From assembly GCA_903813345.2 (NCBI GenBank), contig CAIIXF020000001.1:16554001-16618000 (forward strand): 64,000 nucleotides of DNA, given 5' to 3'. Origin of the DNA: Owenia fusiformis. Lineage: Eukaryota. The number at the start of each line of letters is the position of its first letter. Position 1 is the first letter of the stretch. Position numbers and translations under genes: made by a program. The notes beneath the pieces were generated by a model. That model had not been told where the DNA came from and did not search any database. It saw nothing but the letters and a program-made list of their open reading frames with translations. This document shows positions 7,001 through 35,800 of this stretch, one piece after another.

Positions 7001-10000
7001 TGTCGCATTTTCTTCATCTATGATGTCGTAGGGTTTAGGTGTACCATGCCAAGTACCTAGGAAGTAGTCAGCGAGACAAGAATGTGTGTCCTTAATTACC
7101 TTATCAGCGGAAAGATACCTCTGTTTGATGGTTTCACAAAACAAACGGTGACTGAAATCAAACACAGTAACACCATCAGCTTCTTTTTGGACCATAAACG
7201 CATCAATGTCACTTCGCAAGTGAAGCCAGAGAAGTGGTGGTAAACGACGCACTGTTGGTGTGGACGTTTTGAGAACCTCATTCATAACAACTTCATCAAG
7301 GGATAGAAGATCTTCTATCTCACAATCACTAAGTCCTGTGTGCGACGCTGCTATATATGCTATTGCGTGCGAAGTCAGTATGGAACCATGTTTAAGCTCT
7401 AGTCGATCAAACATAGCATTGATGAACGACGTGCAGTCGCTATATGGTATTTCCTCGATTTTCTCATACGAACTTAATGTCTTTACACCGTTTGCTACGA
7501 GCTTGACAAATAAAGGAAGGCCACATTTTGCAAATGCTTTCTGTACTGCACTCGTTTGTTCCATGGTAAGTGAGCGCTGATCAACGTTCAAAAGAGTTTG
7601 TAAAAGATCAGTACAGTCTGTAACACTTAAATTGTCCACATGGACAAAGCTGGAACCATCTTTGATGACTTCGTTCTGGAGACGATGAAGTATCTGTGTT
7701 TCATCTGGAGTGGATGTCGTCACAATAATCTTCACATTGAAGTTCAAGTTCTTTGGTATCCAGTAGAGGAAATGGGCATTGTATTCCTGGGCAAGAACAT
7801 CGAGGTTGTCCAACAAAATAACCAAATATTGGTCCTCGGGGAAGGATCTGAGTCGTTCTTGAAAGTAGGACAAAAGATCCTTGTATTCCGCCGGTATTTT
7901 TGACACGTCAAATCCGAAGAGACACGCCAGCTGGGTGCAGATATTGTGGAGTATTTGTCGAATATCTGAGCTAGCAGGTGTTAAACCGATTTGTCGTACG
8001 ATCACAGTGACATTTTGGAGACACTCGCCAATCTGAAAAAATAAATGATATGCATTCAATTGCCTTAAAATCACTACTGTAATAGCATTATATAGAGCAA
8101 TGCCGATCAAACAAAGTACCAACCTACAGAGGCCACAATACTGTAGTAGATTGTCTGTTCACAACTAATTTAACCAATCCTTCATAATCTCGTCTTTCTT
8201 ACCTCATCTATGGCCTTTCCAATGATAGCACTTTTCCCGGAACCTGCATCGCCGTAAAGGACCAACGGTTGCGTGTCACCTTCATATAGAATATATGAGT
8301 GAATTTTGTCCAGGATGTCCTCTCGACCAAAAAAACTTTGGCAGCAGTTTTTGTAATGCAGCATGTGTTGTCTGACTTCATCAAACACTGGGAATGGACT
8401 GGATATGTCGGTTTGCTTAGTAACCACGTCATCGATTAGTCTTTGTAGGCATTCATGAGCGGTATTGCTAAACTGATCTAAGTAAGACTTGTGGAGGGTT
8501 GGGTTAATCCCTCCTTCAAATCTCCACAAAACTTGAAATGTCTGAATTGTTTCGGTGGCAGACCATTTCTGGAGCTTGTTCTCAATTAAATCAGTGAGAA
8601 GATCTTGAACTTCACTATCAATCTTGGTCTTCTCTTCTTTATCATCGTATGTGACTTCCATGAACTTCGGGGTTATTGGTTCATTGATGTAATTTTTTAG
8701 GTCGACTATTTTTCGTACAAAGACCTGGCACTCGTGTTGGGCTGTAGACGCTTTACCAATGCCTTCGATTACTTCACTTTCTAGTTCTGGAAACAAAGTA
8801 AGCATTTGGTAAATAATCGCAGAGCACAAACGGCAACATTTGAAAACAAGAACATACTAAAATTTGAAGAACAATTACACATCAGCCTCGATAGAAGCAA
8901 CATTTAAATTTGTGAACAGTAGGGGTCAAACATGACTTAGAAAGCAAAGGTGACGCATTAAATGTAACTTGCGAGGTTGTACTCAAGACTCAAGACAGTA
9001 CTCGCCCAGTGCAATACCAGGAGAGTGAAGATGACAATGTCGGACATTGAGAACAAGGTAGTACTGTTTTATGTAATATCAAACAAAATTACTAGCTTAA
9101 CTGGAGAAAAATATTTTCTGTACCCGATCTTACGATGATAAAGAAGAGAAGACCAAGATTGATAGTGAAGTTCAAGATCTTCTCACTGATTTAATTGAGA
9201 ACAAGCTCCAGAAATGGTCTGCCACCGAAACAATCTGCTATTTCAAGTAAAGAGCATACGGTTTCCTATGGCATTTAGAGGGAGCTATTTGATTACAATA
9301 CATCAACAATCAATATCCTTTTAAACAGTGATCGTATGCATCGATTCAGTAGATGTGTTGCATAAAATAACATACCAGATATACAATATTTGTGTTTCGA
9401 TTCTGCGGGTAATTTTTCTTCAGTAATAGCATACTCGACACCAAGCTGTAGGAGTTTTCTCAATGTAGTTTGGACACCCTCCCATCTTTCTTTTCCTTGC
9501 TTTTGCATTTCCTCGTTATCCTGAAATACAAGAAAAACGTAAATATTGACTGAATATCGTATCGTTATTATTAAAAAAGAAACAAAAAGGCAGATTAAAT
9601 CAAGATATTTAAATAGTAAAATAAACATGAGAAAAAAATTAAAAATCAACCAAAAAGATATATGAACAGCTTCACGTAGGCAATCTCAAGTAATATAGAG
9701 CTTGGCAAAACTTACATTTCTTACACTTACATTATTATTGAAGTCTGTAATGACACTGTTAATTGGTTGCAGAATGTAGACATGTGGGTTGGCGTTCGTA
9801 TCTTTCTTATACCAGATGTCCAGTTGTCCTTGCTCTCTTGTATCTCGGTTCTTGTGATGTAACAAACAGTCCCTGATGATGTCATATTCTGCACCAACTA
9901 TACGGGCTGGTAAAGGCCGTCGACCATATCTCTGACCAAAAAGTACCTAAAGGGGATGACAAATTATTGAATAATTCGTGCAGGCTACGCCGTGTATAGT

Positions 10001-12539: not shown

Positions 12540-14063
12540 ATTCAAGCTTCCAGTTAATTACCTACACCATAAAATCAATGTTCTAGCTTCTAGTAAATTA
12601 CCTATCACCATAAACTGTAACGTTCAAGTTTCCAGTAAATTACCTCCCACAATAAAATTAACGTACAAGCCTCGGGTAAATTACCTACCACAATAAAAGC
12701 AATGGTAAGCTTCCAGTAAGTTGCCTACCACCATAAATTGTAACGTTCAAGTTTCCAGTAAATTACCTACCACAATAAAATTAACGTTCAAGCCTCGGGT
12801 AAATTACCTACCACAATAAAAGCAATGGTAAGCTTCCAGTAAATTACCTACCACCATAAAGTGTAACGTCCAAGCTTCCATGAATTGCCTACCACCATAA
12901 AATGTAACATTCGTGTTTCCATAAATTGACCTATCACAGTGAAATGTAACGTTCAAGCCTCAAATGAATTACCTATCACAATTAAATTTTAACGTTCAAG
13001 CCTCTGGTATCTGCCATCATAAAGTGTAACGTTCAAGCCTCCAGTAAATTACCTGCCACCATAAAGTGTAACGTTCAAGCATCCAGTAAATTACCTGCCA
13101 CCATTAAGTTTAACGTTCAAGCCTCCAGTAAATTACCTACCACCATAAAGTGTAACGTTCAAGCATTCAGTAAATTACCTACCACCATAAAGTGGAACGT
13201 TCAAGTTTCCAGTAAATTGTCTACCACCATAAAATGTGACGTTCAAGTTTCCATAAATTGCCTCGTTGACCAATGTGACGTTCAATCTTCAAATAAATTA
13301 CCTACCACAATGAAATGTAACGTTCAAGCCTCTGGTAAATTACCTGCCACCATAAAGTGTAACGTTCAAGCCTCCAGTAAATTACCTGCCACAATAAAGT
13401 GTAATGTTCAAGCATCCAGTAAATTACCTACCACCATAAAATGTAACGTTCAAGCTTCCATCAATTACCGACCACCATAAAATCTAACGTTCAAATTTCC
13501 ATAAATTGCCTACCAATGACACGTTCAAACTTCAAATAGATTACCTACCACAATAAAATGTTACGTTCAAGCCTTTGGTAAATTACCTGCCACCATAAAG
13601 TGTAACGTTCAAGCCTCAAGTAAATTACCTACCACCATAAAGTGTAATACGTTCAAGCTCCCAGTAAATTACCTACCACCATAAAGTGTAACGTTCAAGC
13701 CCCAATTTCCATAAATTGCCTACCAATGACACGTTCAAACTTCAAATAGATTACCTACCACAATGAAATGTAACGTTCAAGCCTTTGGTAAATTACCTGT
13801 CACCATAAAGTGTAACGTTCAAGCCTCCAGTAAATTACCTACCACCATAAAGTGTAACGTTCAAGCTCCCAGTAAATTACCTACCACCATAAAGTGTAAC
13901 GTTCAAGCTCCCAGTAAATTACCTACCACCATAAAGTGTAACGTTCAAGCTCCCAGTAAATTACCTACCACCATAAAGTGTAACGTCCAAGCCTCCAGTT
14001 AATTACCTACCACCATAAAGTGTAACGTTCAAGCCTCTAGTAAATCACCTATCACCATAAAGT
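12540..14063. repeat. 42-bp minisatellite, ~1.5 kb
   Basis: Unit ~AAGTGTAACGTTCAAGCCTCCAGTAAATTACCTACCACCATA, which translates as KCNVQASSKLPTTI repeats in the ORF track. Indels and stops occur across the array. Confidence 0.95.
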
Positions 14064-14880
14064 GCCAGATATTTAACTTAATTAATTTCGATGTTAAAAC
14101 CTTTGCCATCATATGCGTACCATATACGTATAGCTATACCATCACCAAGCCTCAGAAATGTCACAAAAGGTTAACCCACAACCAATCACGTGATAAAAAG
14201 GCTTCACCGACCAAAGTATGTATCACCACACCCAGTTTAAATTTGATCCCATTCACCACCATTTTTAGATAAAATCATCACAAAGAATCTTCCATATATA
14301 ATGCATACAAGTATTTATATTTTTATAATTTACATGCATATTGTTTAAATAATTGCTTAACAATGGTGACACTGCACAGTTAAATAGAAATGTTAGTTTT
14401 GTTCTTATTTCTTAATGTTGCCATTTGTGCTTCCTTATGATGATCTGCAGCAAATTCTAAATGATGATGATAATACCAAAGATGGAAACAAGTATGCAAA
14501 GAAAGATGTCAGCAACCATAGAAAATTGGAAAGCTCGAACAAAGATAGGAGATAAAGATAGCTGTGTATGCAAAATGTAATTATAGAAGCTGTAGAGTAT
14601 ATTCAAAATGCTCAAAACTAATATAATGAATATGTATAATCCTAAAAAGACAATCAGGTCCATAAACGTTTCGGTCATTGATGATGTAGTTTACCAGCAT
14701 CATTAGTTTATATGTTTACGTGGATTCGATTTATTGAATCACCCACTTCGACCAATTTAGTCAAAGTTATCATATTTTCAAATCAGTGTCTTTGTTGGTA
14801 ACACTTTTTCATGGATGTACTCCTATACTGGTTGTATCGATTCAGCATCATAAGGCAAAATATTTTCATTGTGTCAGGTT

Positions 14881-17800
14881 TCAACACTGTCCACATGCCT
14901 TAGCACAATTCGCTTGCATCCAATCTGGATTTGCACTGCATTCACCATTGGCAGCCCAAGTAGAGCACTTACTCTCATCAAAGCTGTTCACACAGTTACC
15001 CCCTTGAAGGAGAAAACCAAACTTACATGTTGTGTTTAGGGATACGATGACAAGGCAAATTTTGAAAACCGAACTGACAAACTATATTTATGAACATGCA
15101 TGAATTTAGAAAGTATGTATGTATGAGTCTATGAGAAATTCAAGTTCAGTCAGTGCCAGTTTGTATAATACAAGCAACAACAGAACTTATGGTCCTGCAA
15201 ATATGCGTGATGTGTTATATGGCTGTGACAGTGAGGGGATCCAAATAAATCCTAACACCATATACAAATGCAAAAAAATATGTATTCTCGCAATATGTAT
15301 CCTCACAATACCGAACCCTCACAACACAAAATCCAGACAATATCCAATATCTGCTCCATATCTCCAGAACACAGTACAGCACAAAATACAGGACCCGATA
15401 CCAAATCCCAACAACATCAAATCTGCACAAAACACCCTTTATACATAAAATATGCACAGCAGAAATACTAATAGAGTTGTTTCAAACTCGCCGACTCCGA
15501 CACCCGACACTCGATATAGACTAACAGCTACTGTAAATCATCATAGCATTGATATTTGCAATATTTATTTTCAAATAATTTGGATGTTATAAGAAATGAT
15601 AACAAATACAGCAATTTATGATACTATCAATCAATCAATAAGCATTCAGATATAAATGTATATATACATTGCCACTTACATTTATTTTGATAACTAATGA
15701 AAACCTATACATGTAAGCTACAAGTTCAAATATCTAGTTCATGAAATAAACTGATTTTTCGAACACTGAGCCCTGCACAATTTCAACTATTCTTGCTAAA
15801 TTTTTCCTGGGGTGTCTGGATAGAGTACCCATCACCCTGAAAGCCTTAAGATTACCAATGATGTTCAACATACACACGATTGGACCCGATAATCGTATTT
15901 AGTCGCTTGCATTTTCTCTTCAAATGCCCTGGCTTTGGTCTTAATTCAGATGATTTATATTTTCTAATTATAGGATATTTACACGCATAAATTTTATCTG
16001 CCAAAATTCTACAATCAGCTGGGAAAACTAAATGTTCATTTGGGCCAATCGAATCCATCATTGCAAATGTTTGGGCATCGTTCATATGTCCAAGAAACCC
16101 ACTATGAATGTGTCGGATAACCTTGTTGTTATCAATGATAACTTGAGTATGCATGCAGTGAAAGCCTCTGTTTCCAGAATAGAATTCTTCTTGATTTTCT
16201 ACCTTGGGCCGATAAACTTCATGTGAAGTGCCATCAATTGCACCTAGTGCAAATGGGAGATCATTCCATTGACCACGCATACCATTCCACTCGTCCAAGT
16301 TAGGCCATCGGACCTTTGGGGCATATAATTGATGAAGAATTGGCCATGTGTCATTTATCACCTTGCAAATGGTCGTCCTATGGACATCAAACATAAGTGA
16401 CAGGAGACTGTAGCACGGATATGATCTTAACCATAGGAGTGTCAGTAGGAGTCGATTTCGTGGGGATAGACTCTGCTGTTCCTGATGTCTAATTTGTGGA
16501 AGAAATTCAAGGTACATACTTTGGAAAGTTTCAAGTGTCTCTCCAATGGACTGAAAAAGTTCAAATTCATGCGATGAGAACATTTTGAAAACATCCCGAC
16601 CGTTCCAAACATTTTCCTCATGTGGAAATAAATGTTGCCGTATTCCCGGTAGGGGAGCCAAGGGTGTGATGGCCATTAGCAACAAAGGGATAATATTGGC
16701 ATCCATGATCGGTGGTAGTGGTATTGGTTGGAGTACAAACATAAGTATCGTGATGAGAAGTTGTTTCTGAACCATTGTTAGATGTACCTGGAGATAATTC
16801 AAAATATTTTCAGCAAAATAAATCGATTTACAATATGCCTGGGTCACATTTGCTCCGATCCATCGGCCGGCGCCCGGCCGATTGAGTATTTTTTTCAAAA
16901 GTGTATTCAATTGTGAACAAAATACTCAATCGGCCGGGCGCCGTAGTGAAAATCGGAGCAAATGTGACCAAGGCATTATTTATGGATCATTTCACACACA
17001 GCTTTGAGTAGTGCTACTTTTAGAGCCGCTTGAATCACTTGTTTTATTGATCAGTGTGTAACTTGAATTTGGTACACGTGGACATGGCCTCAAAAGAGCA
17101 ACATGCAGGTAAGTTATTTTGCTATGCACAACTTATGTAAACATGATATAAATGAACTTACGGGCATCTTGGAACGGTTTATTTCACCAACGTACGTATA
17201 GATTGTTTCCTAAATGCAAACACCGATATAACTGATCAAATGCGTTCACCAAAATTGATGAGAACAAGTAAACACTCATGCCTGGATCACATTTGCCCCG
17301 ATTCATCAGCTGGCGCCCGGCCGATTGAGTATTTTGTTCAATACTGAATACAATTTTGAACAAATTATTCAATCGGCCGGGCGCCGGCCGATGAATCGGA
17401 GCAATTTTTCTAGATCTAGCTAATTTTTAGGATTAAAATCTTGCTCGCATGTACAAAAATGTAATTTGATATTATCATATATTGCTGTTTTTGTTATAAC
17501 ATTATAACTTATAACATCCAAATTATTTGAAAATAAATATTGCAAATATCAATGCTATGATGATTTACAGTAGCTGTTAGTCTATATCGAGTGTCGGGTG
17601 TCGGAGTCGGCGAGTTTGAAACAACTCTAATACCAGTACACCAATAACACTACATCAAATCCCAACAACCTAACAAAAAGACATCTGCAGAGTGCTAAAA
17701 CATTGTGTATACAAACACAAAACGATGAACCTCTAAATCAAACAACACGATACCAAACCCACACAACGCTAAATCCCCAAAGCATTTAAACGTCATGATT

Positions 17801-20800
17801 ACAAATCAACGCTAAATCCCAAAAACATTTAAACGTCACAATACCAAATCAACACAACGCTAAATCCCCAAAACATTTAAACGTCATGATACCAAATCAA
17901 CACAACGCTAAATCCCCAAAACATTTAAACGTCATGATACCAAATCAACACAACGCTAAATCCCCAAAACATTTAAACGTCACAATACCAAATCAACACA
18001 ACGCTAAATCCCAAAAACATTCAAACGTCATGATACCAAATCAACACAACACTAAATCCCAAAAACATCTGAATGTCACAATACCAAATCCACATTAAAG
18101 ATAAATCCACACAACATCAAAACGACACAATACCAAATCTCCACAACGCCAAATCACAAAACATCAAAATCCACAGAATGGTAAATCCACACAACATCAA
18201 AGTACCAAATCAATCCAATGCTAAATCCACACAACATCAAAACGACATAATACCAAATCAACACAATGCTAAATCCACACAACATCAAAACGACACAATA
18301 CCAAATCAACACAATGATAAATCCACACAACATCAAAACGACACACTACCAAATCTCCACAACGCCAAATCACAAAACATCAAAATCCACAGAATGCTAA
18401 ATCCACACAACATCAAAATACCAAATCAACACAATGCTAAATCCACACAACATCAAAACGACATAATACCAAATCAACACAATGCTAAATCCACACAACA
18501 TCAAAACGACACAATACCAAATCAACACAATGATAAATCCATACAACATCAAAGCGACACAATACCAAATCTTCACTACGCCAAATCACTACGACACCAA
18601 TCCTACCTCCACTATGACTACCAGCATCATTACACGTACCTCCACTCGCAGGTTTATCATTGTTACCTGCAACCTTAGGCTGGTCTCCTTGCATATTATC
18701 AGAGTTATTTGCTTTGTCTCCATCTCCACCCTTGGCACCTACATGATCAAAAACAGTTTGGTCTATCGGTTGATGTAATTTCATTTGTACATTTACGTTT
18801 CATAGAAATAAAAAATGAGATATTCTATAGATAGGCCTATGTGTAAATTATTGTTATGATTGAAGGAACAGAAATGATATTATTTTGATGATGATATTTG
18901 AGTGTAAATGTTTTCCTGATATCTGAATCATGTAACTCAAAATGAAACATCTAATGACAATGTAATGATTAATGAGTACTTTGCTATATAGAAACGATGA
19001 TTTGATAACTATATAACAACGAAACATTAGTTTGATGCAGGGATATAGACAATACATTAATATATTTTACTTTACTCTTCTGGAGGGGTGGATTACATGT
19101 AACATTAAATGGTCATCATAGTCCATAATGTAGTGCAAGGTCTCGTGTCCTTTGAACACGCCACTGTCATATCTACTTAGTACCTTTCACAGTTGTGTGC
19201 ACAGCAATGTTGACACTATTCACCTTGTTTGGGTCGTCAGCTGGGTCTGTGGATAGAAAAAATTAAGATTATTTTATATTTATTGAAAGTGACTGTACTG
19301 TGGATAAGTACTTGAATATATTTTATTTTTATAGCATCTGGCTGCATTGTGGATTGTTATATTCTCTAATGGCCCGTTCTGTTTCCAGGTAGCTCTCTTC
19401 TTCTACATGAAGTAAAATAATTTCTTAGTTGCATGTTTTTCTTACCACACTTTTTGCAAGACTTCCTGCATACATCCGCCATCCACATCCACATCATGGC
19501 GTCCCATTCACACTGTCCCTGGTCCACAAAACCAGAACAATAGTCTATGCCATCTTTACATTCGACTACAATGAAATCAATATGTATTTCATTATAGTTC
19601 ACCACGATTGCATACATATGTATTACGTAAGTAGGACTTCAATTACCGCTAAACCTACAGTTACCAGACTCGATACAGAAAACCAAAGTGATGGGTCCAA
19701 CCATCAACAAGCAGCGAACGTCTAAAATTACTTCGAGGATAAATAAAATATTTTAATTTGTTCAGGGAACTCATAGATAGTCAATATCACTTGGAAGACC
19801 TTACCATCACATCCTGCTCCACTCCAGCCATCATCACAAGTACAACTGCACTCTTTCTTGTTGAACTTGCCATTCTTGCACCCAGTTAATGTGCATTCTA
19901 AATTAGTTATTAACAATGTACACCAGTTGTTAAATTGGGGACATGTTTCACCAGGGCTGTTTATAAATAAATTCAATCAGCTACTGGTATTATGGATAAT
20001 TTAGTTGGTTTTCTTGGTCGATGCAGCTTTGTTGATTATTGGTTTTATATATATCTTATACTAGTAGTTTTGAATGCCTTCTACCTGTTTTGGGCTGTGA
20101 AGCTACATGGAGCATTTTAAATAATGTTATATGACATAGTACTCACTGCAGTCGCCACCACCAGCACTGCACGCTCTCTTGGATGCTATAAAATATAGAA
20201 TATTTCAAGTTATCCATTTTGCTTTAGAATATACAGGGTGACAAAAAAAACTGGAACCCATAAATCATCAAATTTCTCGGAAAGTATAATACCTACATTC
20301 TTCATTTCTTCAGGGTAGAAACTAGACTGAATGCATGACAAAATGACACAATAATGAGTACTGTAGCTTAGATATTAATCATGCCATGGACGACAGGAGA
20401 AAATACTTATATTGTGAGAAAGCGTATCGAGACAAAATCCTATAAAGAGACACAGACTGCCTATATGAGAGATCACAGGGCAAGAAGAGCCCCTTGCAAG
20501 TCACAGATCTTTAGGCTTGTACAGAGGTTTGATTCGGAAGGAACTGTAAAACCAACAAAGAAGAAAAGTGATGGTAAACCAACCTATTCGGGGAGAGAGA
20601 GGTCTGTCAGAACTCAAGACAACTCAACAGTCATCTCAGAACGTTACATCCCTAACGTTCAAAAGTTTTGGAGAGCGCTGGGTAGACGACGTGACTTGAG
20701 AAGGGACCAGCAATGGCTCCAACAATATGGTGTCACACCCCACACCTCAAATGAGTCCATTCGATGGCTTCAGGCTCACTTTGGTGATCGATTAATCAGT

Positions 20801-23800
20801 CACCATACCCTCCACATCTGCCCCCCCCCCCACTCCCCTGATTTGAAACCCCAGATTTTTGTCTGTGGGGGTATCTCAAGGATAATGTGTATACAGATGG
20901 TCCACTGACCATAGATGACCTCAAAATCAACATTGGAAGATTAATTAGAGAGATAGACAGAGATGAATGCAGTCGGGTCATTGACAATTTTGCAAGAAGA
21001 ATCAATCTCTGCATCCAATGTCGTGGTGCACATTTGGAGCACATTATCTAATCGTGCTTCATTTAGAGACTAATTGATCTAGAATGCTGAAACTTTTACA
21101 TCTTGTCATACATTCAGTTGACTATACCTGTACCAGGTAACTAAGCTCAATATGCATAATTGACAAAGTTATTAAGACTTAAGTGGGTTCCAGTTTTTTT
21201 TGTCACCCTGTATTTAATAAATAGTGTCTGATATTATAAATGCGTCCAACGATCAAACGATCAAATACATACCACACAGAACATTGTCCATACAGAAGCT
21301 GTACCCAACAGGGCACTGGCTGCAAGGTTCTCCCTCAATGTAAGGTTTGTCCTCGATACCAGTTTCAGCATTTGCTGTATTTCCTCTATAAATAAATACA
21401 CGATGTGTCGTTATTGATACCATTGATGTTGACATGTTGACATGTCTACAATACCCAGTGTGAGATATTGCTGCCATTGATATTAATGTTGGCATCAGTA
21501 GCTGAATCACTATTATCTTAATGAAGATTTTTCTTCAATAAGGTCACAACTGTTGAGCTTTTTGGAAAAAAGGCATGACAAAAAACGATAAAAACAAAGA
21601 AAATTGTAAAATTGTGACAAACGTTTCGAAACTAACTCCCAACTCGTCTCTATCACTGCTAGAGAAAAGAATTTATTGAGATACAATGCAAGATAATTCT
21701 TTATTTAGATGATTTATAGGAGTTTGTGTCAATCTTGCACAATATTCTTCTATATTCAATCAAAACAAAAGGTTATTGAGTTCAAACCACTAAAAGGACA
21801 CAAACAACACTTGTTCCTGATGAATGGGTTGCAGACACACATGTTACATATAATGTGAGATTAGCATTATTAAAGTGGCAATTATTCATCTATATTCTTC
21901 TTAATGTGCAAATATGCATAATTTACCTTGGATGTAAACAAAAAAACATCGCCATATTGAACAATTGAAGGAATTGCCCTATGAGTCACTGTGAGTCTAA
22001 TCTCCAAAAATGGATCATATCAGAAAACATGCGGGATGTTATAACTTAAAGATACATCGTCAAGTTCTTTGTTTGTGGTTTTCTCTACTGGCTATAATGT
22101 ATATATGGACATTAACACATTCCACGTGACATACAGTATAATTAAAAGAGAGCATAGGAAATAACTCACTTTTCATATTGACATGTTCTTATGTTTTAGA
22201 GGGGTATATCCAACAGGAATGAAATTATGAAATAAAAATACTTGTGAAAATACGTTGTGATTTGCTTTTCAAATGTTGCCCTTGGTGTTTTATCATTGTA
22301 CTTGCACACTGTTTGTTGAAAACAAATAAAAACAAGCCGGATACTATTAAAAATATTACACTGAATAAAGGTTCCAGACGAACCAACAGCATGCTGAGAC
22401 CTTATTGGTGAACTTTGGACATTCAATCAATTAAAGTCCGTGTTTAACTACGGTATGATAATGACAATCCTCGAAGGTATCTACCCTGGATTAGTATTTT
22501 TACATCAGACTATACAACCTTATCAAGGCCAACATCATCAGCAAAACTGAGAAAACCCGTCAACATGAATGCGTTCATTCTTGCCCTAGCTATTATCATA
22601 TTGATGGGATGCGGCAACACTGCTAGGATCCCATTGTGCAAGAAGCCACAGATTGTTGAACTAAATAAACAACTGACTCAGCGAAATACAGACATTGGGG
22701 AAAGCCTAGAAGTTTTCTCTGGAACTGTTACAGGTGTTATAAGCACATTAGAAGTGAGCCAATCTCTCAAAGAGGCAGCCTTCGGCCAAATGGTAGCCAA
22801 ATATACAACCCTACTCAAATACTTAGAAGAGAAAATAGAACATCTTGAAGAAACCTGCAGCTGCTTCGGTAAGAAATTTAGATGCAATTGTAAATTAAAA
22901 TATGATTATGGTCAACAGTTCTTGACAAACTGAAGTAATGGGTATCATAAAGGTTACAATTTTATTTAATATTATTGTATTTTTGGACTCTAGTACTAAA
23001 GATAACCAAGTATTTAGCTCATAAGTTACTGAGAAAATACTTGTCAAAAGTGTCTCATTTGTTGGGACACCCGATATATGTATCACGATAATCAAAATAT
23101 GAACCCAATGGGGTGCTATTTTAAATGTATGTAGAGTCACGGTGGTCAAATGTCTGTCAAACATCTAAAACTGTGCTGTGACAATTTTTAAAACAAAATT
23201 GTTTTGTTCCAGCCAATCCAACAACACCAGCAGCAAAACCAGTAATACCAACGACACCAACACCAACATCATCTTCAACAACAGCAACAACAACAACAGA
23301 AAAAACAACAAACGGCACAGTAAGAGGGCTAGGGAGAGCGGGTGCAGAAACAACAGAAATGTATGACAGCTTTGATGTTAAGAAATGACAAACTCTATCT
23401 CACTCTATTTGGGGTATGACACCATTTCCATGGGAATGTCGTATTAACAAATAGCTGTGGTGTATGTTGTATGTTTAGACCTAATCATGATACCATGATA
23501 CAACTGGGTCCTAGGAATAGCCAAGATAAGGGATGGGTTTGAACCTTTAAAATGTATGATAAAATTGCAAAAATAGATATATATATTAGAACATATATTT
23601 TATTTTTTGTTGCATGGGCCATGTTATTATGTTACATGTATGTGATCTAGGGCAACACTTGATTAAAGTCCACAGTTGGTAGCTACTGAAGTCAAATCCA
23701 TTTTATGGGAAAGTAACCCATTTGTAAGTGAAATACCCAACCGTGCCTAATAGTTGGAAGACAAATGAATCTGACAGGATTGGATCTCTATAACTATCAT

Positions 23801-26800
23801 TGAACAAGACAAAGCATATATTGTAAGTTATGATAAAAGAGATGACTTCAATTTTGATATTATAGATTTTCCACACTTGGATAGTAATATTTAATTGAAC
23901 CCAGTATATGGGGTCTATGTTTCCCAGCCTATTAGATATAGCAGGACATGCTCGAAATATTAGTTTTGAATCAAGACATAATTATTTTAGGCCAAGTTTA
24001 AACAAGTAAAAAACGTAAACAACACTTTTTAGGCTTTATTGAAAAATATAGATCACTAGATCTAAGTTTTGCCACTTGACATGTTCAGGGACTTGGCACT
24101 TTTAGGGTGGATCCGACTTTGGTATTAATGGTTGAGAAATAGGGATCGAAACCAGCCATAGTTTTCTCCTGACGAGAATCGTGAAATATTGTTGCTTACT
24201 GATTATGGCGTCGGCTTTGCGGATGGATCTTGACACTTTGATAAACTTATGGATTTCGAGACAGGATTTTGTCTGTCCCACATCATTTGAGACTGAATGC
24301 TCTTGTATGAAAATAGTAGTACCTACAATTATTATTAAATGGTGGGGAGGGGGTATCAGACATTGTTTCTTTTAATGTTAGATATTGATTTGGGATAGTT
24401 GGGGCTTGTTTTCCTAATGACTGGAGTACTCTCAGATGTTTTTTGTCTTGCTGTATTCTGTAATAATTGTTTGTCATTTCCCTATGAGACTCATGCATAC
24501 ATATTCATTTGCGCAAAACCTTTTTTCCAATTTGTAATCCAATAAAAGTGTTTTCATGAAACTACTCATTATATCCTTATTCCTGACACTCTTCCCTTTC
24601 TTGCGGTATTTTGATAACCTTGGGGCAAATAGTGTTGACTCTCGTTTGCCCAACTACAAATCCCCATAAGCCATATTGATATGAGGAATTAACCTTCAAA
24701 ACTACGCGCATGACATTTGTAATTCACAAAAGTGTATAAGATTTAGACATAATGAGTTAGCATTCGTTTAACAAAAACAGTAAAATTCATTGGGGTTTCA
24801 ACATCTTCCTCACATTCTTTAAAATAAAATGATGCGCTTTATCTATTGATGAAAGGTCATTTTCTTTAAAACTTTTAGCATCAATAACCCATCTAGAATA
24901 GGATAGGCATGGCTCTAGCATGGATGCAGACATAAATTGATAGGTCATTGTCTTATGACTTCAAATGTTCATAATCATTTAATTTGACAAGAAAGGTTAA
25001 TGAGTGTATACCTAATCTTCCCACATAATTCCATAGTCACTAAAACGATATTGTTTTATAAATCATCAAACTTGACAGTTTGCATGAGTCTTGCTGATTA
25101 CAGAGGTGGAAAAACATAGCATGTTTTAACAATCTCCTATTGAAACAATTCCATGGTGATAAAATTGAGCTAAATGCATTTCAACTTGACAGTTTATATT
25201 GTACTGTAATGAGAAATTGTCATGATGACAATTCTGCATATAATAATAGATAGTATCATTTGGATGTATAAGTCAGATAAAATATAAAAATGCCATTCCT
25301 TGGAATGGAGGAAATGACGTGTCTTGATATGTCTAGTGACCTTTTATAGTTAATGAAAACACAAAACGATATTCTGCGCCAAGGGCTGATGTGAAAGAGT
25401 CAGTCCACCAATATAAATTATAATGCTTTCTTAATGCTAGGTTTTCTTCTCGGGTAAAGTTTAAAATCACCGTAAAGGTTCTACACTTTCATTATGGGTG
25501 TGAGGTACTATATATAATCATAAAAGAAACACATTAATTATGAGAGATCAAAACTTGTAAAGGAAATGGTTTTTGAGGTATAGGAATGACCAATTTCTGA
25601 GCCGAAGATGAGTTTTAAACAAAATTATCTATTGAAATATAGGTAAAGCAATGTTCAAGATGGATAAAATGCTCTAGATAAACAACCAAGATAAAGTCAA
25701 GCTAACCTAAATATGATGTCTACTGTCTGGGCACATCAACAGCATGCTGATAGCTAATTGGCCAGCCATGGAGAGCCAAAGTCAAGGATTGACGAGCAGA
25801 TAGTCACTGTCTCTGTGTCAGCTGTTACAAAATGATGATGATCTCTAGCCTATATCTAAAGTCTGTATCAATAGCGAGTGTCAAACAGTCGGCGCTACAG
25901 AGTAACATCGGCAACAAAACAAAACAAGACAAGAAGTCTCAAGATGAATGTATGCATTGTTGCACAAGTTGTATTAATCCTGGCATGTACCAGTTTTATC
26001 AGTGCCTATGTACCGCTTTGTAAAAAGCACCAGCTCATAGCTCTTACTGCGCAACTGGCAGAAAGAGATGCGGTCATTCAGGGAAAGCTAGATGGTCTTA
26101 ATGAAACAGTTGCTCTGATTGAAAACTCTATTGCAGCGAACGAGGCCAGCAATTCAGCAGCCTATGATCTCATGACAGCCAAGTTTGATGATCTTATTGG
26201 CATGCTAGAGGATAGGCTTGAAAATCTCGAGGAAAGTTGCAAATGCAGGTATCTTATGACAGGTAGGATTCTTTTTAACCTATTGGCAAAATCATGTTAA
26301 ATTATGGAGGATAGAGGAATGGATGATGTTTTGTTCAGATCTGATACTGTTTGGATAAAAACACTAAAATGTCATCGCCCAAAGCTTTATAAAAAGTGAC
26401 ATATTCACCCACCTCTCTAAACTTGTATAAATGTATGAAGACCGACTGGGCATTGACCGCTATATGCACTTGTCAAATGATTTTAGACCCAGTGTTCTAA
26501 AGTTTTGAGACACAACAGGATTCATGGTCAGTGAAAAATGTGAAGAAAGGGAATAAAGATGATGGATTGAGCCAATTTTGTAATTTAGGGATAGATGATC
26601 TCCCCACCCCATACTTTCGTTTCCATATAACCTCCTATCGTTTCATTTTATTTCAAGGCAATAGTGAACATATGGTTAACCATCTCATGTCTTTTGGTGT
26701 CCATAGTATATTACAATGACTACTAAATATTTATATAATTTTATTTCAAGGCAATAGTGAACATATGGTTAACCATCTCATGTCTTTTGGTGTCCATAGT

Positions 26801-29800
26801 ATATTACAATGACTACTAAATATTTATATAATTTTATTTCAAGGCAATAGTGAACATATGGTTAACCATCTCATGTACTTTGGTGTCCATAGTATATTAC
26901 AATGACTACTAAATATTTATATAATTTTATTTCAAGGCAATAGAGAACATATGGTTAACCATCTCATGTCCTTTGGTGTCCATAGTATATTACAATGACT
27001 ACTAAATATTTATATAATTTTATTTCAAGGCAATAGTGAACATATGGTTAACCATCTCATGTACTTTGGTGTCCATAGTATATTACAATGACTACTAAAT
27101 ATTTATATAATTTTATTTCAAGGCAATAGTGAACATATGGTTAACCATCTCATGTCCTTTGGTGTCCATAGTATATTACAATGACTACTAAATATTTATA
27201 TAATTTTATTTCAAGGCAATAGTGAACATATGGTTAACCATCTCATGTCCTTTGGTGTCCATAGTGATATTACAATGACTACTAACTACTAACTACTATG
27301 GTTTATATTTAGTGCCACCTTAATTTTAACGACACCGTAGTGTGAATATGTATTGTATTTCATGTACTCTTCTTTGAAGAACACCTTGTATTGCTGTACA
27401 ATAAATAATCAAAAGTTACATATTTGTGTTGTATGGAAAATGCAAAAGATTATTTCGAAAGTGCAGTATACAATCTATATACATGTACAGTTACATAATT
27501 CGAACAAAAGTAACTGTAGTATGTGGAACAAACTACTGTTCGAATTATTAAACAAGAATGCACTGAAATTCCAACAGTATAGAATTATAATATATAAACT
27601 TAAAATGTAGTGTTGAAAATAACGGTGTGCTATATTCTTAAAATTACAATTTTCAAAATATACCTGATGGAATATGACGGGTGAAAAAATGCATTTTTGT
27701 TTTAGGGTTTTTCTCAACTACAAAAGCATTTAAACCAGCAGCAAAAGCAGAAACAACCACAACAACAACCATCCGACCAACAACAACAACAAAATTAACA
27801 ACAAGAACAACAACAGAAGCAGCAAATGAAAGGGGAAGAGCGGGAGTAGAAACGCTAACAACAGAAATGTATGACAGTTTTGATGTTAAAAAATAATATG
27901 CATGTTATTTTCTTCTGTTTTTAAGTAGAGCATCATTGTCACTGTGGAACATTGTTGTGTGGTACATGATACGACATAGATGAAACTCTGAACAATGGTC
28001 TGGTTGCAAAACTCAAAATTGTATGATAAAATTGGGAAAATAAATATCTAAAAACACAAATACTTCTGTTAGCTGTACGTAACATGAGCCATGCTAGAAT
28101 CTTTATAGGTTGGATAGTAATGCAAAGCTGAAAATACACCCTATGTATACTGGAGCGAGCAGAAATAATCGGTGCGGATAACATGGGTGTGCAGTGCGGG
28201 ATAACGGTCATCTTTTAATTTCAATTTGCCACAACTATTTTGAACACCGATACTGTAAAATGCTGAGAAAATGAATAACACACTTATTCTAACAATTTCC
28301 TTGATATCGAATGTCAACTTTATATATAACTGAAACCCCAATGGCTTAGTTTAAAGGTATCATAAACAAGTTCAAATAACGATCGTTGTCTCCTCACCGC
28401 CCGCATTTATCAGCATGGGTAGTTTTCTGCGCGATCGGTCCCCATAGGTGAAATCTAAGTTATCAGATTCATCCCAAGGTCCAGGGGAAACATTTTGCTG
28501 ATGACTACATACCAATTAACCCAAATTTACGTGTTGATATAAAATATTCGACTTCCAAAATACACATACGATATCATTTCAGTTCCTCCAGGTGGTTAAC
28601 ATTACGGTGAAATAAAAAGTGATCGGATGTAAATGTTCCGCTCCAAAGATTTTAGTCATATTGAATGATGAATAGGTCATGTAACATGTAATGATAAACA
28701 AGGTCAGTGACATAAATGATATAGAAATAACACATCCTGTAGACATAAAGCTTATTATTAAATACTATTGTTTTACGACTATAAAATATATGAACGTGAA
28801 AAGATGAATATGTTTTTATTCCCAGTCATTGATGCATCATATGTTATGAGTTTTAGCAAACAATACCTTTGATTTAATATAATTTCAAAAAAAGTCATAA
28901 GTAGATATTTTCTGAATGAATGAGTTTATATGAACAATGAATGAATGAATGAATAATGAAAACTATAATTAAAAAAAACAATATGCTCGATCACAGAAAA
29001 AATGTTGAAACTTTAAAGTGTGCCTAAAATATTGTGATTTGACTAGTTTTTACCAGTCATGAGCACTTACAATTGGGTACACGTTTAAATCAAAGTTTCA
29101 TCTTTATACAAGAAAATTGTATAATCAAATTATTCTAATTAGATTTATATATTTCAAATACAAACACATACCAGACCGTAGCCAGCTTTTACCAAGGGGG
29201 GTCACTTCTTAGAAGTTTCCAGGGGTGTCACTTTTGACAATCTTGTTCCAAATATCGCCAAAATCACTTAAAAAGTTGCTCAGAATGGTGAAACATTGCA
29301 TGATTTTGAAAGAGGGGGGCACTAACCTATCGACCCCTCCCCCCCCCCCCCCCGGCTATGGGCCTGCATATGAAATTTCTAAAGGTGTTTGATAATTATT
29401 CCTAGTAACAAAATTGAAAAACATTAAGAGATAAAGCCTGTTCTATGCTGTAATAAACATTGATATACGTGCTGTCTAAAATATTATTAGAGATGATTCG
29501 CAACTCACTTATCATACTGTATATAGCATGTTCATTATTCCCAAATTATGAAGCGCCTGATTACTACGTCATCATTTATTGCTGTTTTGTTGGAAATGTG
29601 TTTTCATATAGCCTGTCCACTCAGTTTGCAACCATCGGGAGACATTTAGATAAGAGAGATGTTTCGAAGAGACAATGGTCGTCCTCTCAGATTATCTACT
29701 TTGATTTGCTCTATTCATAGTTCCCAGTTCCCCTCACCACCGCAGTCGCACTGCACTTTACATGCATGTATCTAAATTGTGCCATGTTATGTATCTTTAT

Positions 29801-32800
29801 GTATCTCACACTTTAAATCAAATATACAGTATTTCATATAACGATAAAAAATAATATGATTGATTGCATATCTTAAATGAATAATCAAACAGATAGTACC
29901 CTTCACATTCTACACTTGATGGTATATGTAGTTTGTGAAAGATAAGATTTTTCGATTTTCCATAAATATATGATTTGGATGGACACAATAGGAATATACT
30001 ATGGTTTTGAAAAAATATCATTTGTATCCATGAGTGTATATTGATATCTTCACGAGTGAGCACGGCGAATGAGTGAAGATATCGATATCCATGAGTGGAT
30101 ATTGAAAAACATGAAAAGAAATATTGATAAAATCTAAACCATCGAGTATCACATTTTGAGAAGTGATATTCGATAGTTTGAGAAGTGATATTCGATGGTT
30201 TGGGGAATTTTTGCTATAAAATGATATCTTGATCAACATATCAAATATAACTTCGCCTGATATTCGATCTATATCATTGTAACCATGGGATAAGATTGGA
30301 TTATATCTTTAACAGGCGTATAACTAACTTCCAAATCGAAAAACTTATTGTCATTAAATTATGCAACAAAAAACTTGTGTGTGGTACTCAAATAAAGTGT
30401 CTCGGCACATCAACAATGTTCTGAATGCCAATTGGTCAACTGTAAAGAGCAAAGTCTAGAACTGACAAATGGAAATAAAACATTATTGATTTTTGATTCG
30501 ATCCTGAACTTTGTCTTACATCTTTATATTATAAGAACTGCTTATCAGACAGTCAGCAACACAAAGCAACACAAGAGAAAGGAATAGCTCCGATATGAAT
30601 GCATCCATTCTCATCCAAGGTGTAATTATGCTGGTATATATCAGCATAATTGATGCTTATGTGCCGCTTTGTAAGAGGCACCAGATTCAGACGCTAACGG
30701 AAGAACTGGCAGAAAGAGATACAAATATTCAGGGAACGCTAGGCGATCTCAGTGCGTCCGTTTTGAGCATAGAAAGAGCAATTGCAGTTAGCAATGCCAT
30801 AAATAGTGCAGCCTACAATCACATGACAGCCAAGTTTGGTGACCTAATTGACATGTTTGAGGATAGGATTCGAAATCTGGAGGAGAGTTGTACATGCAGG
30901 CATCTTACGACACGTGAGGATGTTTTTATAATCTGTTGTAGTCATGAAGCGATAATGTGATACTTTTTTCATAATTATCTAATTCAATGATAGTCCCAGC
31001 TGATACATAACATTGAATGTATTGAAATGTCATTAAACAATCATTAAACAAGAAAACATTGAAATTTCAACAACTATAAATTATAAACTTTCATTGAAAA
31101 TAAAGTGACTGTAATGACTGGAATAGCATATTCATACAATCATTAAAAAGAAAACGTTGAAATCAACTGTTTGACTTATGTTGTTCGAAATCATGGTTCG
31201 CGAAATAGTGTATCAATAACATTATAGTATATTACTTTAGATGAGTGATATGTCATTTTTGAAACTGAATTAGCAATCCAGTGGTATATCATACACGAGA
31301 AATACCTGATGAATTATAAAATGAGCATGGACATGAAGGTGTACTCGTTATTTGACCATGTTTGTGTGTAAAGTGTATGATTGTGTAGTGTATAAATTAA
31401 AATTCTTAAAATAAGAACTTGATAGCTTCTGCAAAAGATCATTGCGAACATTTAAATATAAATGTTTGGGTATTTTGGGTAAAGGGGGTGCCATTTCTCC
31501 ATTTATATTTTATGTAAATTCAAATTGTTTACTCTAAAACACACAGAAATTAACTTTCTGCTAAAATACCCAAAAGAAAATACTTTGTTCGGAAACTAAG
31601 CAGATGAATGCGCCAATTGCTACAACAATCAAATCAGATTGTAGTTTGTAAAAATAGAAAGCAATAGTGTGACACAGTCCCATGTAAGTTCATCTTTCTG
31701 GTTTATATAATAGCTTAAAACAACTTTTTTCATTTAATTTTATTCATTCCTTGAAAAAGACTTGTGGACACAAGTCGAAAATCTTGATGTAATAAAATTG
31801 TTTTCTTTGTGTGACATATTTTTCAGTTTAAACCTTGAGAAAAAATTTTGTTTCAGAATTTCTCTCAACAACAAAAGCACCAGAAAACCCAGAAGTAAAG
31901 ATACGAGTAGAAACAGCAGAATCAACTAGAATGCCAACAACTACAACAACAACGGAAAGAACAACACAAACAACTACTAAAACAACACCAACAACAACAG
32001 AAAAAACAACCCCCACCACCGTCACAACAGTAAAAACAACCCCCACCACCGTCACAACAGTAAAAACAACCCCTACCACCGTCAAAACAGTAAAAACAAC
32101 ACCAACATCAACAACTGTGAAAACAACACCAACATCAACAACAGTAAAAACAACACCTACATCAACAACAGTAAAAACAACACCTACATCAACGACAACT
32201 ACTACAACAGTAAAACCAACACCAACTGCAACATCGAAAGTAGAAACAACACCAACTACAACCACAACAGTAAAAGCAACACCTTCTTCTACAACAACAA
32301 CAGAACCAACAACAGTAAAAGTAAAAACAACACCCACAGTGACTACAACAACAACTACAAAAGCAGCAACAACAACAACAGATGGAGAGGGAGATGGGAA
32401 GTGGAAGGGGGGTCAAAAACCGGGAAATGCAAAAGGACGTTTGGGAGAAACAACAGAAATGTATGACAGCTTCGATGTTTGAAAATGAATGTACATTTTC
32501 TTTACACATCAGTAAGCACAAATAAATGGAAACCTCGTTGGTGTTTTAATATTTATTAATCCCATTTGTATCTCAAGTGAATGATGTTTGTATAATATAG
32601 AGCAAAGAGTAAATTGGACAAAATAAATATATAATTTATTATCATTTTTCTCTTTCATATCTCAGTAATTAATGTGCAACGAAACATCAATTCAATAATG
32701 TATCCAATACTTAAATTCAGGCAATATAGCATATAATAGTAGGTATAAAACACATAAGATGCTTTACAAATGATCAAATCAACTCTCATCAACATGGAAG

Positions 32801-35800
32801 ATAAACAAACAAATAAACAAGTAAAAAGGCATTAACATGGAAAATGTCACCACCTTCCATTTGTTACTGACACCATACACCCGAACCCCGAATCTGGAAC
32901 ACCGTCCGCAAAAAATTGGAAGACTATAGCATCGCTTGTGGTGGTGACATAACAAAAACCAAATCTTACCCTGGTGCATAGTTACAGTGCATGATATCCC
33001 AGCCATCTCCACAGTCGTTATAACCGCATCCTACTAGGCTGGTTGTGGCCCACACGAGGGCAGTATAGTGCCCGCAGACAGCATTGCATGATGGTCCACT
33101 GTACGAATAGTCTTTATACTCATTGTACCAAGCATCAAATGACCTATAAAATGAAATCATGATCCAATATAAATTGTGTAACATTTTTTTCAATGATAGA
33201 TATTTTGTTTTGAATTGTTTTACAGAAGACGCACCACAGCAATTAAAAAAATACAAATCTTTTTTGCCTCTATCGCATTTGCCGCAGTGGTTGTAGGCTC
33301 AAAAATGCCTTCGACCAAAAGCGAACATTCCCAAGGTCACATACTGAATAGCAGCAGTAGTCACATATGTGGCAAAACCACTATGATGGAACCACTATGA
33401 TGAAAATGATGATAAGTAAACAATGCAATTATAAAACTTACTGTCGAATACCATAATTTCCTGCATAGTTTTGCCCTACAAATGGATACGGCTTAAACAT
33501 CCTCTCTTCATTGGTGTCATGTCCCTTTAAGCATGTATCAGCACGTCCTTGGGCACTTTTCTCCAGTCTATCATCCCATTCCTTAAAAATGTAAAGACCA
33601 TTTGCTTGGTACCAAGTTAAGTCAATCCTGGCAAACACGTGCGACCCCCCCCCCCCCCCCACAAAAACATAACCAATAAAAATGAAACCACTAGATAGAA
33701 GAAGAAAGGAACTTTGAAATGCTTTTTATTTGAAGCTGAATTTTGAAGGAAATTGCATCAATTTTTGTAAACTTCAAATCAAATCTAAACTTTTTTTTGG
33801 CTCGCTCATACCACGTTCGCACCCCCCCCCCCCCCCCTGACTGAAACCCCAAGTTTTGCGATCGCACCCCCCCCCCCCTGACTGAAAGCTGGCTACGCCC
33901 CTGTCACATAATCTACATCTACATTACCACCCCGGGTGATCAATATCCTGTGTTCCGAATTTCGTTCCAGCAAGTCAGTGACCCGAGTTGTGTTTTACTG
34001 AATCCCGACAAATATGGCGGCTAATTTGACAACAGACGATGTTGATGTCGACAATTATTCAAAACTTTCTGACAGCATAAGGTAAGACTGAATATAGAGT
34101 GGCGCATTCGGTGCCTAAATATGTTTGCAACATTTTCTTAGTTGTTTATCCATATGCGTTGGGCATTACTGCTAATCGAAGCATAAGTAAACGTGACCTC
34201 ATTTTCAACGCTCGCTGGAAAGTATGTCACCGAGCAGTTTTTGACCTTCTGTTAGTTAATGAGATAAACTGTTATCATGGTATAATTGCTGGGTAGACGT
34301 TCAAAGTATGTACCAACTCATACTTCCAGTGAATGTAAACCATTTCTTTGCATAAGCGTCCTAGAAGGCATAATAAGATATATTCCATAGTACCGAATAG
34401 GAATCGCCAGTGTTCCGACGCACTTCATGGATAAATGCTCATAGACTATTGAATCATAATGAACAGAAGCAGTGTATACTCACGTGTGATATCTTAATTT
34501 ATCAAAAATAAGAATTGAATGCATTTGATAATATTGATACTTTGCCAACTTGACTGATTTTTTTCTAGTCTGAGTAATTAATAAATGAGTAGTGGATTTG
34601 ATTAATTGAGGATTTCCCATGTTAAAATATGTGAAAATTGTCAAGAGGCCACACACATCAGAGGATGAGAGTACAATACAACATGTGTAAATTATGAGAC
34701 TATGTTGCAACACCTTCAAAGAATGGTCATTTCACAATCCACATTGCACATACTGTAGCAGGCATTTTTATGATATATTTTAACATTGTCACAAAAACCA
34801 GGGATTGACAAAAAATATAGCATATCATATAGCAGGTATATGCCAGGTATTGTAATATATTTCAACGTTGTCACTGTTAGAGTAGGCATTACAATTTACC
34901 CATAAAAATATAATAATATTGACAACAGGCTAAAAAGTCTTCACTTAGTAAGCCATAAATGTCACATAAAGGCGACGGTCACACCAGGCTTTCACGATAG
35001 CATTGCTAAGGTAATAGTCCCTGGTATGACTTCCGAATATGAAGGATCCGTAGCACACTATAGCGCAGCAACATTTGAAGCAATATTTATGAAGGTGTAT
35101 AGGTCTTGATTCTTTTATAATACCATTTGCCGAAAAAACTTCCGGCTTTCGGGTCGAAAAATGTATTTCATCACAAGGGGTCAAAAAACGTAAATATTTT
35201 GATTCGAACTTTTATAAATTTTATAAGACACAGACCGTTATTCTAAGCATACGAACAAAAAAATTGATTATCATAATGTCAAAATTACTATGATTTTACT
35301 GTAGATGTCGGTGTTTAATTAGTGTAATTACACAAGTGTGTTTTTCAGATTTTGTTTGATTTTTCAAATATGAGCTAAGCCGATTCAACAAAATTGTATG
35401 GAATATTTAGGTAATTTTTTTTGATTGGGAACGTATTCGTTTTCCGGGTAGTTTTCTTACCAGTTAAAACATTTTATTACCAGAATTTTTCCATATAATC
35501 GTAAAGGGTCTAACAACAAATTATTGTTGATGTTTTATAAAACATAATAAAATAACAAATAGGTAAGATTCATATCTAATTCGATGTTACAGAGGTATTT
35601 GCATGTTCATATATTCCAAGGGCATGTCTAATAATCAATTAGAGTCATATGCAGTCGAACGCCTTACAATTCTTCCTCGACGTTAGTTGTGGCTATCATC
35701 AAGTTTTCTGATGGTTGTTTCTTCTTTGACCTTACCGAAGGATGCAATCAAATTTTAGGAAGATAATGATAACGATTTTTCTCAATTATTCATGAATTCG

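Follow-up and report, generated by a model that had tools for sequence, protein, structure and literature searches.

We analysed a stretch of 64,000 nucleotides from the genome of Owenia fusiformis, a tube-building marine annelid (assembly GCA_903813345.2, contig CAIIXF020000001.1, positions 16,554,001 to 16,618,000). The whole stretch is called the window here, and positions are counted from its first nucleotide. Our subject is a set of three tandem two-exon paralogs on the plus strand, A, B and C, whose predicted proteins share the decapeptide TTEMYDSFDV at their ends. The parts of the three gene models are given below, with a slash marking the exon boundary at splice sites.

22565..22868, + strand: exon 1 of A, an open reading frame (ORF) for a putative signal peptide, a Cys, a long helix and C-x-C; phase-1 donor TTCG/GTAAGA
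23213..23388, + strand: exon 2 of A, encoding a short Thr/Pro stalk, the linker, the tail and the stop; acceptor TTCCAG/CC
23332..23337, + strand: Gly-Arg codons of A (GGG AGA), a candidate protease site, aligned with those of B and C
23350..23379, + strand: codons of TTEMYDSFDV in A, followed by AAG AAA TGA at 23380-23388
25944..26262, + strand: exon 1 of B, encoding a putative signal peptide and the Cys-flanked helix; phase-1 donor ACAG/GTAGGA
27706..27896, + strand: exon 2 of B, encoding the stalk, the linker, the tail, KK and the stop TAA
27834..27839, + strand: Gly-Arg codons of B (GGA AGA)
27858..27887, + strand: codons of TTEMYDSFDV in B, followed by AAA AAA TAA
30595..30913, + strand: exon 1 of C, encoding a putative signal peptide and the Cys-flanked helix; phase-1 donor ACAC/GTGAGG
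31857..32482, + strand: exon 2 of C, encoding a long tandem-repeat Thr/Pro/Val/Lys stalk, a Gly/Lys-rich linker, the tail and the stop TGA
32435..32440, + strand: Gly-Arg codons of C (GGA CGT)
32450..32479, + strand: codons of TTEMYDSFDV in C, with the stop TGA at 32480-32482
32483..32488, + strand: relic AAA TGA in C, once the second Lys codon and the stop, in frame

A GT-AG, phase-1 intron is common to all three gene models. Spliced A encodes 159 amino acids (aa) in an open frame with a single terminal stop, spliced B 169 aa and spliced C 314 aa, and the spliced C protein was identical, letter for letter, to the database entry "unnamed protein product [Owenia fusiformis]". The identity of A to B and C was 35-37% in tblastn comparisons (E 1e-15 to 1e-18), and that between the first exons of B and C was 58%. 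Judged from these sequences, A, B and C are old tandem duplicates. The intron of B contains 6.9 copies of a 93-bp unit, which are 98% identical (window positions 26645-27285).

An earlier reading of the window, made from the sequence alone (the sequence-only reading), had claimed that all three paralogs end in the same peptide. This was borne out by the degenerate back-translation of EMYDSFDV: its three matches in the window (23356, 27864 and 32456) are on the plus strand, and none occurred in 100 shuffled windows. The translated tails agreed with this, reading ...VRGLGRAGAETTEMYDSFDVKK in A, ...NERGRAGVETLTTEMYDSFDVKK in B and ...NAKGRLGETTEMYDSFDV in C, each up to the stop codon. TTEMYDSFDV is followed by KK and a stop in A and B and by an immediate stop in C, so that the distance from the motif to the protein end is 0 or 2 residues in all three paralogs. 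Reading of the codons also upheld the claims that the nucleotide differences are synonymous and that a new TGA in C stands in place of the first Lys codon: within the motif the only differences were AGC/AGT and TTT/TTC, both at third positions, A and B differ past the motif by AAG/AAA and TGA/TAA, and C reads GTT TGA AAA TGA.

A genomic run from another individual, with contigs crossing the introns, carries another allele of C. In this allele the TGA is changed to TAA at 32481, which, by its sequence, is a one-step intermediate from AAA. The Arg codon of the Gly-Arg is changed synonymously from CGT to CGA, a 6-nt insertion encoding Gly-Pro is present at 32443, between the Arg and the motif and three codons upstream of the latter, and 6 nt are deleted from the stalk at 32314. 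Further changes were seen in the stalk and the 3' flank, and none lay in the motif among the 8 of 10 base differences listed.

Selection on the tail

Synonymous and non-synonymous differences in exon 1 were counted by the Nei-Gojobori method, and values are given in the order A-B, A-C and B-C. The proportion of synonymous differences (pS) was 0.71, 0.59 and 0.46, and that of non-synonymous differences (pN) was 0.39, 0.41 and 0.23. The Jukes-Cantor ratio of non-synonymous to synonymous divergence (dN/dS) ranged from 0.26 to 0.51 (0.55/2.13, 0.58/1.14 and 0.28/0.71), indicating that the duplicates are old and that the genes are under constraint. The ten tail codons showed no non-synonymous difference in 25 sites in any pair, and 1-2 synonymous differences per pair. 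At the rates of exon 1, the probability of zero non-synonymous differences in 25 sites is 4e-6 for A-B, 2e-6 for A-C and 1.5e-3 for B-C. The longest invariant run was 10 residues in the tail versus 4 in exon 1, and a 10-column invariant run at a given place has a probability of 1.7e-6 at the invariant rate of exon 1.

In DNA alignments (MAFFT), the identity formed a sharply bounded island of ~33 nt, whose limits are the stop codon downstream and the linker upstream. Upstream identity was lost within a few codons in the pairs with C, and A and B shared a further ~18 nt of linker. The 3' flanks could not be aligned from the stop codon until a second small island, which lies on the plus strand ~140-185 nt past the stop (A 23552-23590, B 28019-28055, C 32609-32640). 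This second island contains AATAAA in B (28039) and C (32622) and AATAGA in A (~23558), and is a probable poly(A) signal region.

The sequence-only reading had suggested purifying selection on the tail, and had named identity extending equally into non-coding flanks as the mark of gene conversion. The non-coding 3' flank beside the motif was not conserved, and the suggestion of selection stood, with no amino-acid change in the tail against an exon-1 pN of 0.23-0.41. Exon 1 has diverged far, yet the tail has kept all ten amino acids and the identity breaks off on either side of the motif. These comparisons give good support to purifying selection on the decapeptide, and the peptide is hence functional.

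Protein architecture and likeness to known systems

From N- to C-terminus, each predicted protein has a signal peptide, ~80 helical residues flanked by Cys, a stalk rich in Thr and Pro, the conserved Gly-Arg and the tail. Read by eye, the N-terminus encoded by exon 1 is short, hydrophobic and signal-peptide-like, and is followed by a Cys, ~75 helix-forming residues and C-x-C. Invariant columns in exon 1 numbered 28 of 106, and included C26, C99, C101 and Leu, Ile and Val at core positions. The AlphaFold2 model of exon 1 was a single helix spanning residues 3-105, with a mean predicted local distance difference test score (pLDDT) of 80.

We modelled three copies of residues 22-106 of B, and obtained an interaction prediction score from aligned errors (ipSAE) of 0.77, compared to 0.08 for the best of 3 controls. 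At least 86% of contacts were common to the runs, with a partner pLDDT of at least 83. Contacts were in register (59-59, 52-52 and 88-88) with 3-4 spacing, and Cys99 was among them. In calibration on microbes, 21 of 30 solved one-chain pairs came up to the ipSAE mark, compared to 0 of 23 single chains. Among eukaryotes, 17 of 29 pairs (7 of 16 from animals) did so, but just 1 of 7 that lacked an older solved relative, and 0 of 30 single chains. The calibration rested on two copies, and the three-copy job was folded without an alignment. The model supports, but does not prove, a parallel, in-register oligomer of the exon-1 helix.

Thr, Ser and Pro together make up 46% of the exon-2 part in A, 38% in B and 58% in C. 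The stalk varies about five-fold in length among the paralogs, from about 35 to 190 residues, and that of C contains tandem repeats with periods of 27, 30 and 54 nt (31935-32311). A long Thr/Ser/Pro-rich stretch, often tandemly repeated, is the hallmark of a mucin-like (proline/threonine/serine) region, and was found here; the stalk is presumably O-glycosylated. Secretion and glycosylation of the three proteins are inferred from these sequence features. The term 'knob', which the sequence-only reading had used for the tail, proved too strong, since the disordered stalk carries no folded head but a short linear peptide.

The motif Tyr is surrounded by acidic residues, Glu at -5 (in A and C), Glu at -2, Asp at +1 and Asp at +4, has Met at -1, and has no Lys or Arg within 5 residues. 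The accessible part of PMC6272617 describes the context of sulfated Tyr as acidic residues within -5 to +5 and a neutral or acidic, not basic, residue at -1. The motif Tyr has this tyrosylprotein sulfotransferase context as far as that source describes it, and the tail is thus consistent with Tyr sulfation. A Gly-Arg with a preceding basic residue stands before the tail in all three paralogs, with no furin-type R-x-x-R, and could be cut by a trypsin-like protease.

The nearest documented analogy, in mechanism only, may be the end of the fibrinogen gamma chain. According to the accessible part of PMC4813479, AGDV-COOH at this end binds integrin alphaIIb-beta3 through the Asp side chain, which reaches the metal of the metal ion-dependent adhesion site (MIDAS), and through the alpha-carboxyl of Val, which contacts the metal of the site adjacent to it (ADMIDAS) via water. 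AGDV alone binds, and amidation weakens binding ~6-fold (PMC4813479, same part). Like the gamma chain as described there, the paralogs would be secreted coiled-coil proteins, locked by disulfides, that present a short peptide with a final Asp-Val at the extreme C-terminus; the encoded chain of C already has Asp-Val-COOH as its end, and A and B would have it only once KK is trimmed. Unlike in AGDV, Phe and not Gly precedes the Asp, and neither a sequence relationship to fibrinogen nor a fibrinogen-related domain was found in Pfam or among PDB sequences.

Other systems resemble the paralogs in part. In PSGL-1-type mucin-stalk adhesion proteins, whose acidic peptide bears sulfotyrosine, and in hirudin, an extended O-glycosylated stalk or a small carrier presents a short acidic Tyr peptide at one end as the binding element, and leech hirudin has an acidic sulfated C-terminal tail. 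However, PSGL-1 is membrane-anchored, has its peptide at the N-terminus and contains several Tyr residues, whereas A, B and C have a single, C-terminal Tyr on a predicted soluble protein, and show no homology to PSGL-1 or hirudin. The parallel, in-register helix bundle with Cys at its ends, found here in the model, and the arms with a binding element at the tip recall the disulfide-locked extracellular matrilin/COMP modules and the 'bouquet' proteins of the collectin type; matrilin has a C-x-C ring. Unlike matrilin and COMP, the paralogs had no Pfam match to those modules, only sub-threshold generic coiled-coil matches, and in contrast to folded heads (lectin, VWA or C1q) the 'head' is a ten-residue peptide and the bundle is N-terminal. 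Prohormone precursors likewise have a signal peptide, a C-terminal bioactive-looking peptide and terminal basic residues, of the kind that carboxypeptidase E/D removes. They differ from the paralogs, which have a monobasic Gly-Arg upstream, one copy of the peptide, no amidation signal and a large, structured and presumably glycosylated carrier. Convertase sites on both sides of the peptide were not seen: upstream there is basic-Gly-Arg or R-G-L-G-R, and downstream KK in A and B and nothing in C. No relatives among precursor families were found at the Pfam threshold or among 1.84 billion representative proteins. Going by the defining domains and processing sites, which the three sequences lack, A, B and C are members of none of these systems.

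Proposed role of the tail and rival explanations

We propose, giving the idea an even chance, that the tail is a short linear docking motif with a free C-terminus, carried in multiple copies on the glycosylated tethers of a disulfide-locked coiled coil. The signal peptide would be cleaved and the proteins secreted, and the 80-residue helix would pair in parallel and in register to form a coiled-coil oligomer, with one Cys before the helix and C-x-C behind it in positions where disulfides could lock the chains. O-glycosylated Thr/Pro stalks, varying freely in length, would act as flexible tethers. The decapeptide would act as a free C-terminus, Asp-Val-COOH, in several copies per oligomer, and one conserved partner, possibly an enzyme, a receptor or a component of the matrix, would recognise it. 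The two lysines that end A and B are of the type that basic carboxypeptidases of the secretory pathway remove, and trimming by such an enzyme would generate the end that C encodes directly. Paralog C gives the strongest single hint: its nonsense change removed exactly KK, which argues that an Asp-Val-COOH end is viable and probably the mature end. What the sequences show directly is the motif, the selection on it, the gene models and a lack of known domains, and oligomerisation is supported by the model; that KK is trimmed, that a free carboxylate is needed and that a partner exists is what we infer.

A more specific version, drawn from the fibrinogen analogy and in our view very unlikely, is a gated tethered ligand. 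Each of the several mucin tethers on the disulfide-locked oligomer would end in a latent acidic peptide. Removal of the KK cap by a carboxypeptidase would expose Asp-Val-COOH, possibly beside a sulfotyrosine, for binding to a metal-ion site of a cell-surface receptor, and a subsequent cut at Gly-Arg would release the peptide. Paralog C would then be a constitutively 'uncapped', long-reach version.

Several observations weigh against the docking-motif proposal. The evidence for conservation comes from three paralogs in one genome, and no ortholog or other relative of the family was found in any collection searched. Paralog A has no entry at any length, and paralog B none at 58-186 aa, in the protein collections searched, so that by this comparison both look unannotated. 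We read three O. fusiformis RNA raw-read runs in part (about 6, 6 and 12 in 100 of each); across these, the depth on B and C was essentially nil, that on A was ~0.8-fold in one run, in the orientation of plus-strand RNA, and no exon-exon joint was found for A, B or C. Such near-zero depth is no evidence for or against expression. The oligomer was modelled with three chains, a number that the analyst chose. Synonymous change in the tail is also scarce, with 1, 1 and 2 differing codons per pair against 4.1 of 10 expected at saturation under the genes' own codon usage; the probability of at most one differing codon is 0.03, or 0.01 with exon-1 codon usage. This shortage suggests that some homogenisation or a nucleotide-level constraint may add to the identity. 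Furthermore, A and B are closest in the linker and KK, whereas B and C are closest in exon 1, and some past gene conversion may have acted besides selection.

Short-tract gene conversion among the tandem copies as the main source of the tail identity is nevertheless quite unlikely. The shortage of synonymous change just described speaks for it, as do a pS of 0.2, 0.2 and 0.4 in the motif against the higher exon-1 values given above, the stretch AGA GCG GG common to the linkers of A and B, and the position of the tandem copies within 10 kb. The identical tract, however, is merely ~30-55 nt long and ends at the stop in every pair, beside 3' flanks that do not align, and a few codons upstream in the pairs with C. 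Synonymous differences, AAG/AAA and three stop arrangements survive inside it, the flanking homology that conversion requires is now absent, and conversion alone would not set the edges of the tract on the coding end three times. A constraint acting on the nucleic acid, such as an RNA hairpin, a small-RNA target or an element belonging to the antisense host gene, with the peptide incidental, could also account for a mild deficit of synonymous change, and RNAalifold did predict a small hairpin across the motif. Across 109 columns this hairpin reached a consensus energy of just -7.7 kcal/mol. Its covariation term was slightly unfavourable (+0.44), and of the two variable positions in the motif, one disrupts a predicted base pair. 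The variable positions are all third codon positions of the plus-strand frame, and no Rfam family was found at threshold in 22000-33000. We rejected an RNA-structure reading of the island on the lack of covariation support and of an Rfam match, and regard nucleic-acid constraint in general as extremely improbable.

Two further possibilities accept the peptide as functional and assign it another role. The tail could be a released signal (a hormone, pheromone or cue) for which the coiled coil and stalk are mere carriers, a possibility that we hold to be rather unlikely. A trypsin-like or convertase-type cut after Gly-Arg and removal of KK by a carboxypeptidase would yield an acidic peptide of 13-16 residues, AG.../LG...ETTEMYDSFDV, possibly Tyr-sulfated. 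The basic-Gly-Arg that precedes the tail in all three proteins suits this route, and the terminal KK resembles a dibasic prohormone processing site. The Tyr context, too, fits the sulfation sites described in the accessible part of PMC6272617. Yet the upstream site is neither R-x-x-R nor dibasic, with the second basic residue at P3 or P5; there is no amidation Gly and one copy per precursor; and no known peptide precursor family was matched. The very large carrier is itself constrained, as its dN/dS of 0.26-0.51 indicates, and the length of the linker between Arg and motif varies, even between alleles. Alternatively, the tail may be an internal sorting or processing tag of the secretory pathway, for example one read by a cargo receptor for routing to granules. 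Luminal receptors that read free C-terminal carboxylates exist, and the C-terminal position has been retained in all copies. However, the tail fits no known luminal sorting motif, being neither KDEL-like nor a hydrophobic glycosylphosphatidylinositol signal, and KK would have to be removed before the motif became terminal in A and B. We consider a sorting tag as improbable as gene conversion.

Setting, relatives and meaning of the array

Exons on the minus strand flank the array on both sides, and an ORF and a domain search gave the following features.

33441-33725, - strand: probable second CAP exon, read by eye
32969-33298, - strand: CAP exon (Pfam CAP, E 1.1e-8)
19728-19976, - strand: EGF-like ORF, read by eye
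19366-19638 and 14881-15081, - strand: ShK exons (Pfam ShK, E 4e-9 and 1.7e-4)

The presence of minus-strand CAP, EGF-like and ShK exons on both sides suggests an antisense, intronic position of A, B and C, which probably lie inside a ~13-kb intron of a gene for a secreted CAP/EGF/ShK protein, the 'host' of the sequence-only reading. High-copy repeats, with a word depth of hundreds to thousands in the genomic run, occur at 24085-24441, 25156-25512, 29083-29439, 29797-30510 and 32653-33000. RNA reads on these repeats were 95-99% alike and continued into unlike sequence, indicating that they stem from other genomic copies.

Elsewhere in the window, long satellite-like tandem repeats lie at 12986-14272 and 17799-18778 on the plus strand; they have open frames with repeating peptide units and a strong C-over-G skew, and are probably non-coding. 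Two transposon relics were found, an ORF for a Harbinger-type DDE transposase at 15852-16925 on the minus strand (PF13359, E 1e-12; PF13613, E 1.5e-10) and an ORF with a DUF4817 helix-turn-helix at 20372-20905 on the plus strand (E 1.4e-6). Large intact ORFs are present at 4019-8829 on the minus strand (1367 + 215 aa; by eye, a P-loop nucleoside triphosphatase with WD-like repeats) and at 60773-62488 on the plus strand (571 aa; by eye, a BTB/kelch protein).

The search for relatives of A, B and C covered protein, structure, metagenome and literature collections. A profile of exon 1 run against the 1.84 billion representative proteins gave 3 matches at E <=0.001 and no true relative: one match was paralog C itself, and the other two were unrelated proteins with repeats or coiled coils. 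A word-index search with C returned C alone plus one chance match at E 5e-3, and one with exon 1 of B returned no match. Pfam, NCBIfam and the PDB sequences gave sub-threshold generic coiled-coil matches only, and the ESM Atlas gave no feature match and, by structure, generic long helices only. In metagenome contigs, 587 profile-derived pattern matches were obtained, of which tblastn confirmed none, and the motif pattern had no match in metagenome-contig DNA. The last 40 residues of A exon 2, compared with longer proteins, gave 0 of 155 candidates at E <=10; this search missed paralog C as well and is thus insensitive and no proof of absence. Sub-strings of the motif did not occur in the full-text literature searched, and the accessible parts of the literature on the Owenia tube or secretion held nothing on A, B or C. 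On present evidence from these sequence collections, the family appears restricted to the Owenia fusiformis lineage so far. A, B and C are an undescribed, lineage-restricted family of predicted secreted proteins with an unusually sharp C-terminal motif.

Lineage-restricted secreted proteins form a large and mostly unread share of invertebrate genomes. Here the paralogs themselves point to the ten residues that matter, which provides a ready synthetic peptide probe for a partner, and the change from KK to a stop in C hints with unusual directness that the functional end is a free C-terminus. In the protein collections searched, two of the three genes seem to be missing, which suggests that the annotation of this reference annelid genome has a gap here. 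Should the tail turn out to be a ligand that is sulfated or binds a metal site, it would add an independent case of a C-terminal peptide ligand presented by mucin tethers. Were the gated-ligand version true, an annelid would have independently invented a fibrinogen-gamma-like bridging of cells or particles, and tube building, mucus nets and gamete and larval adhesion would be possible settings for it.

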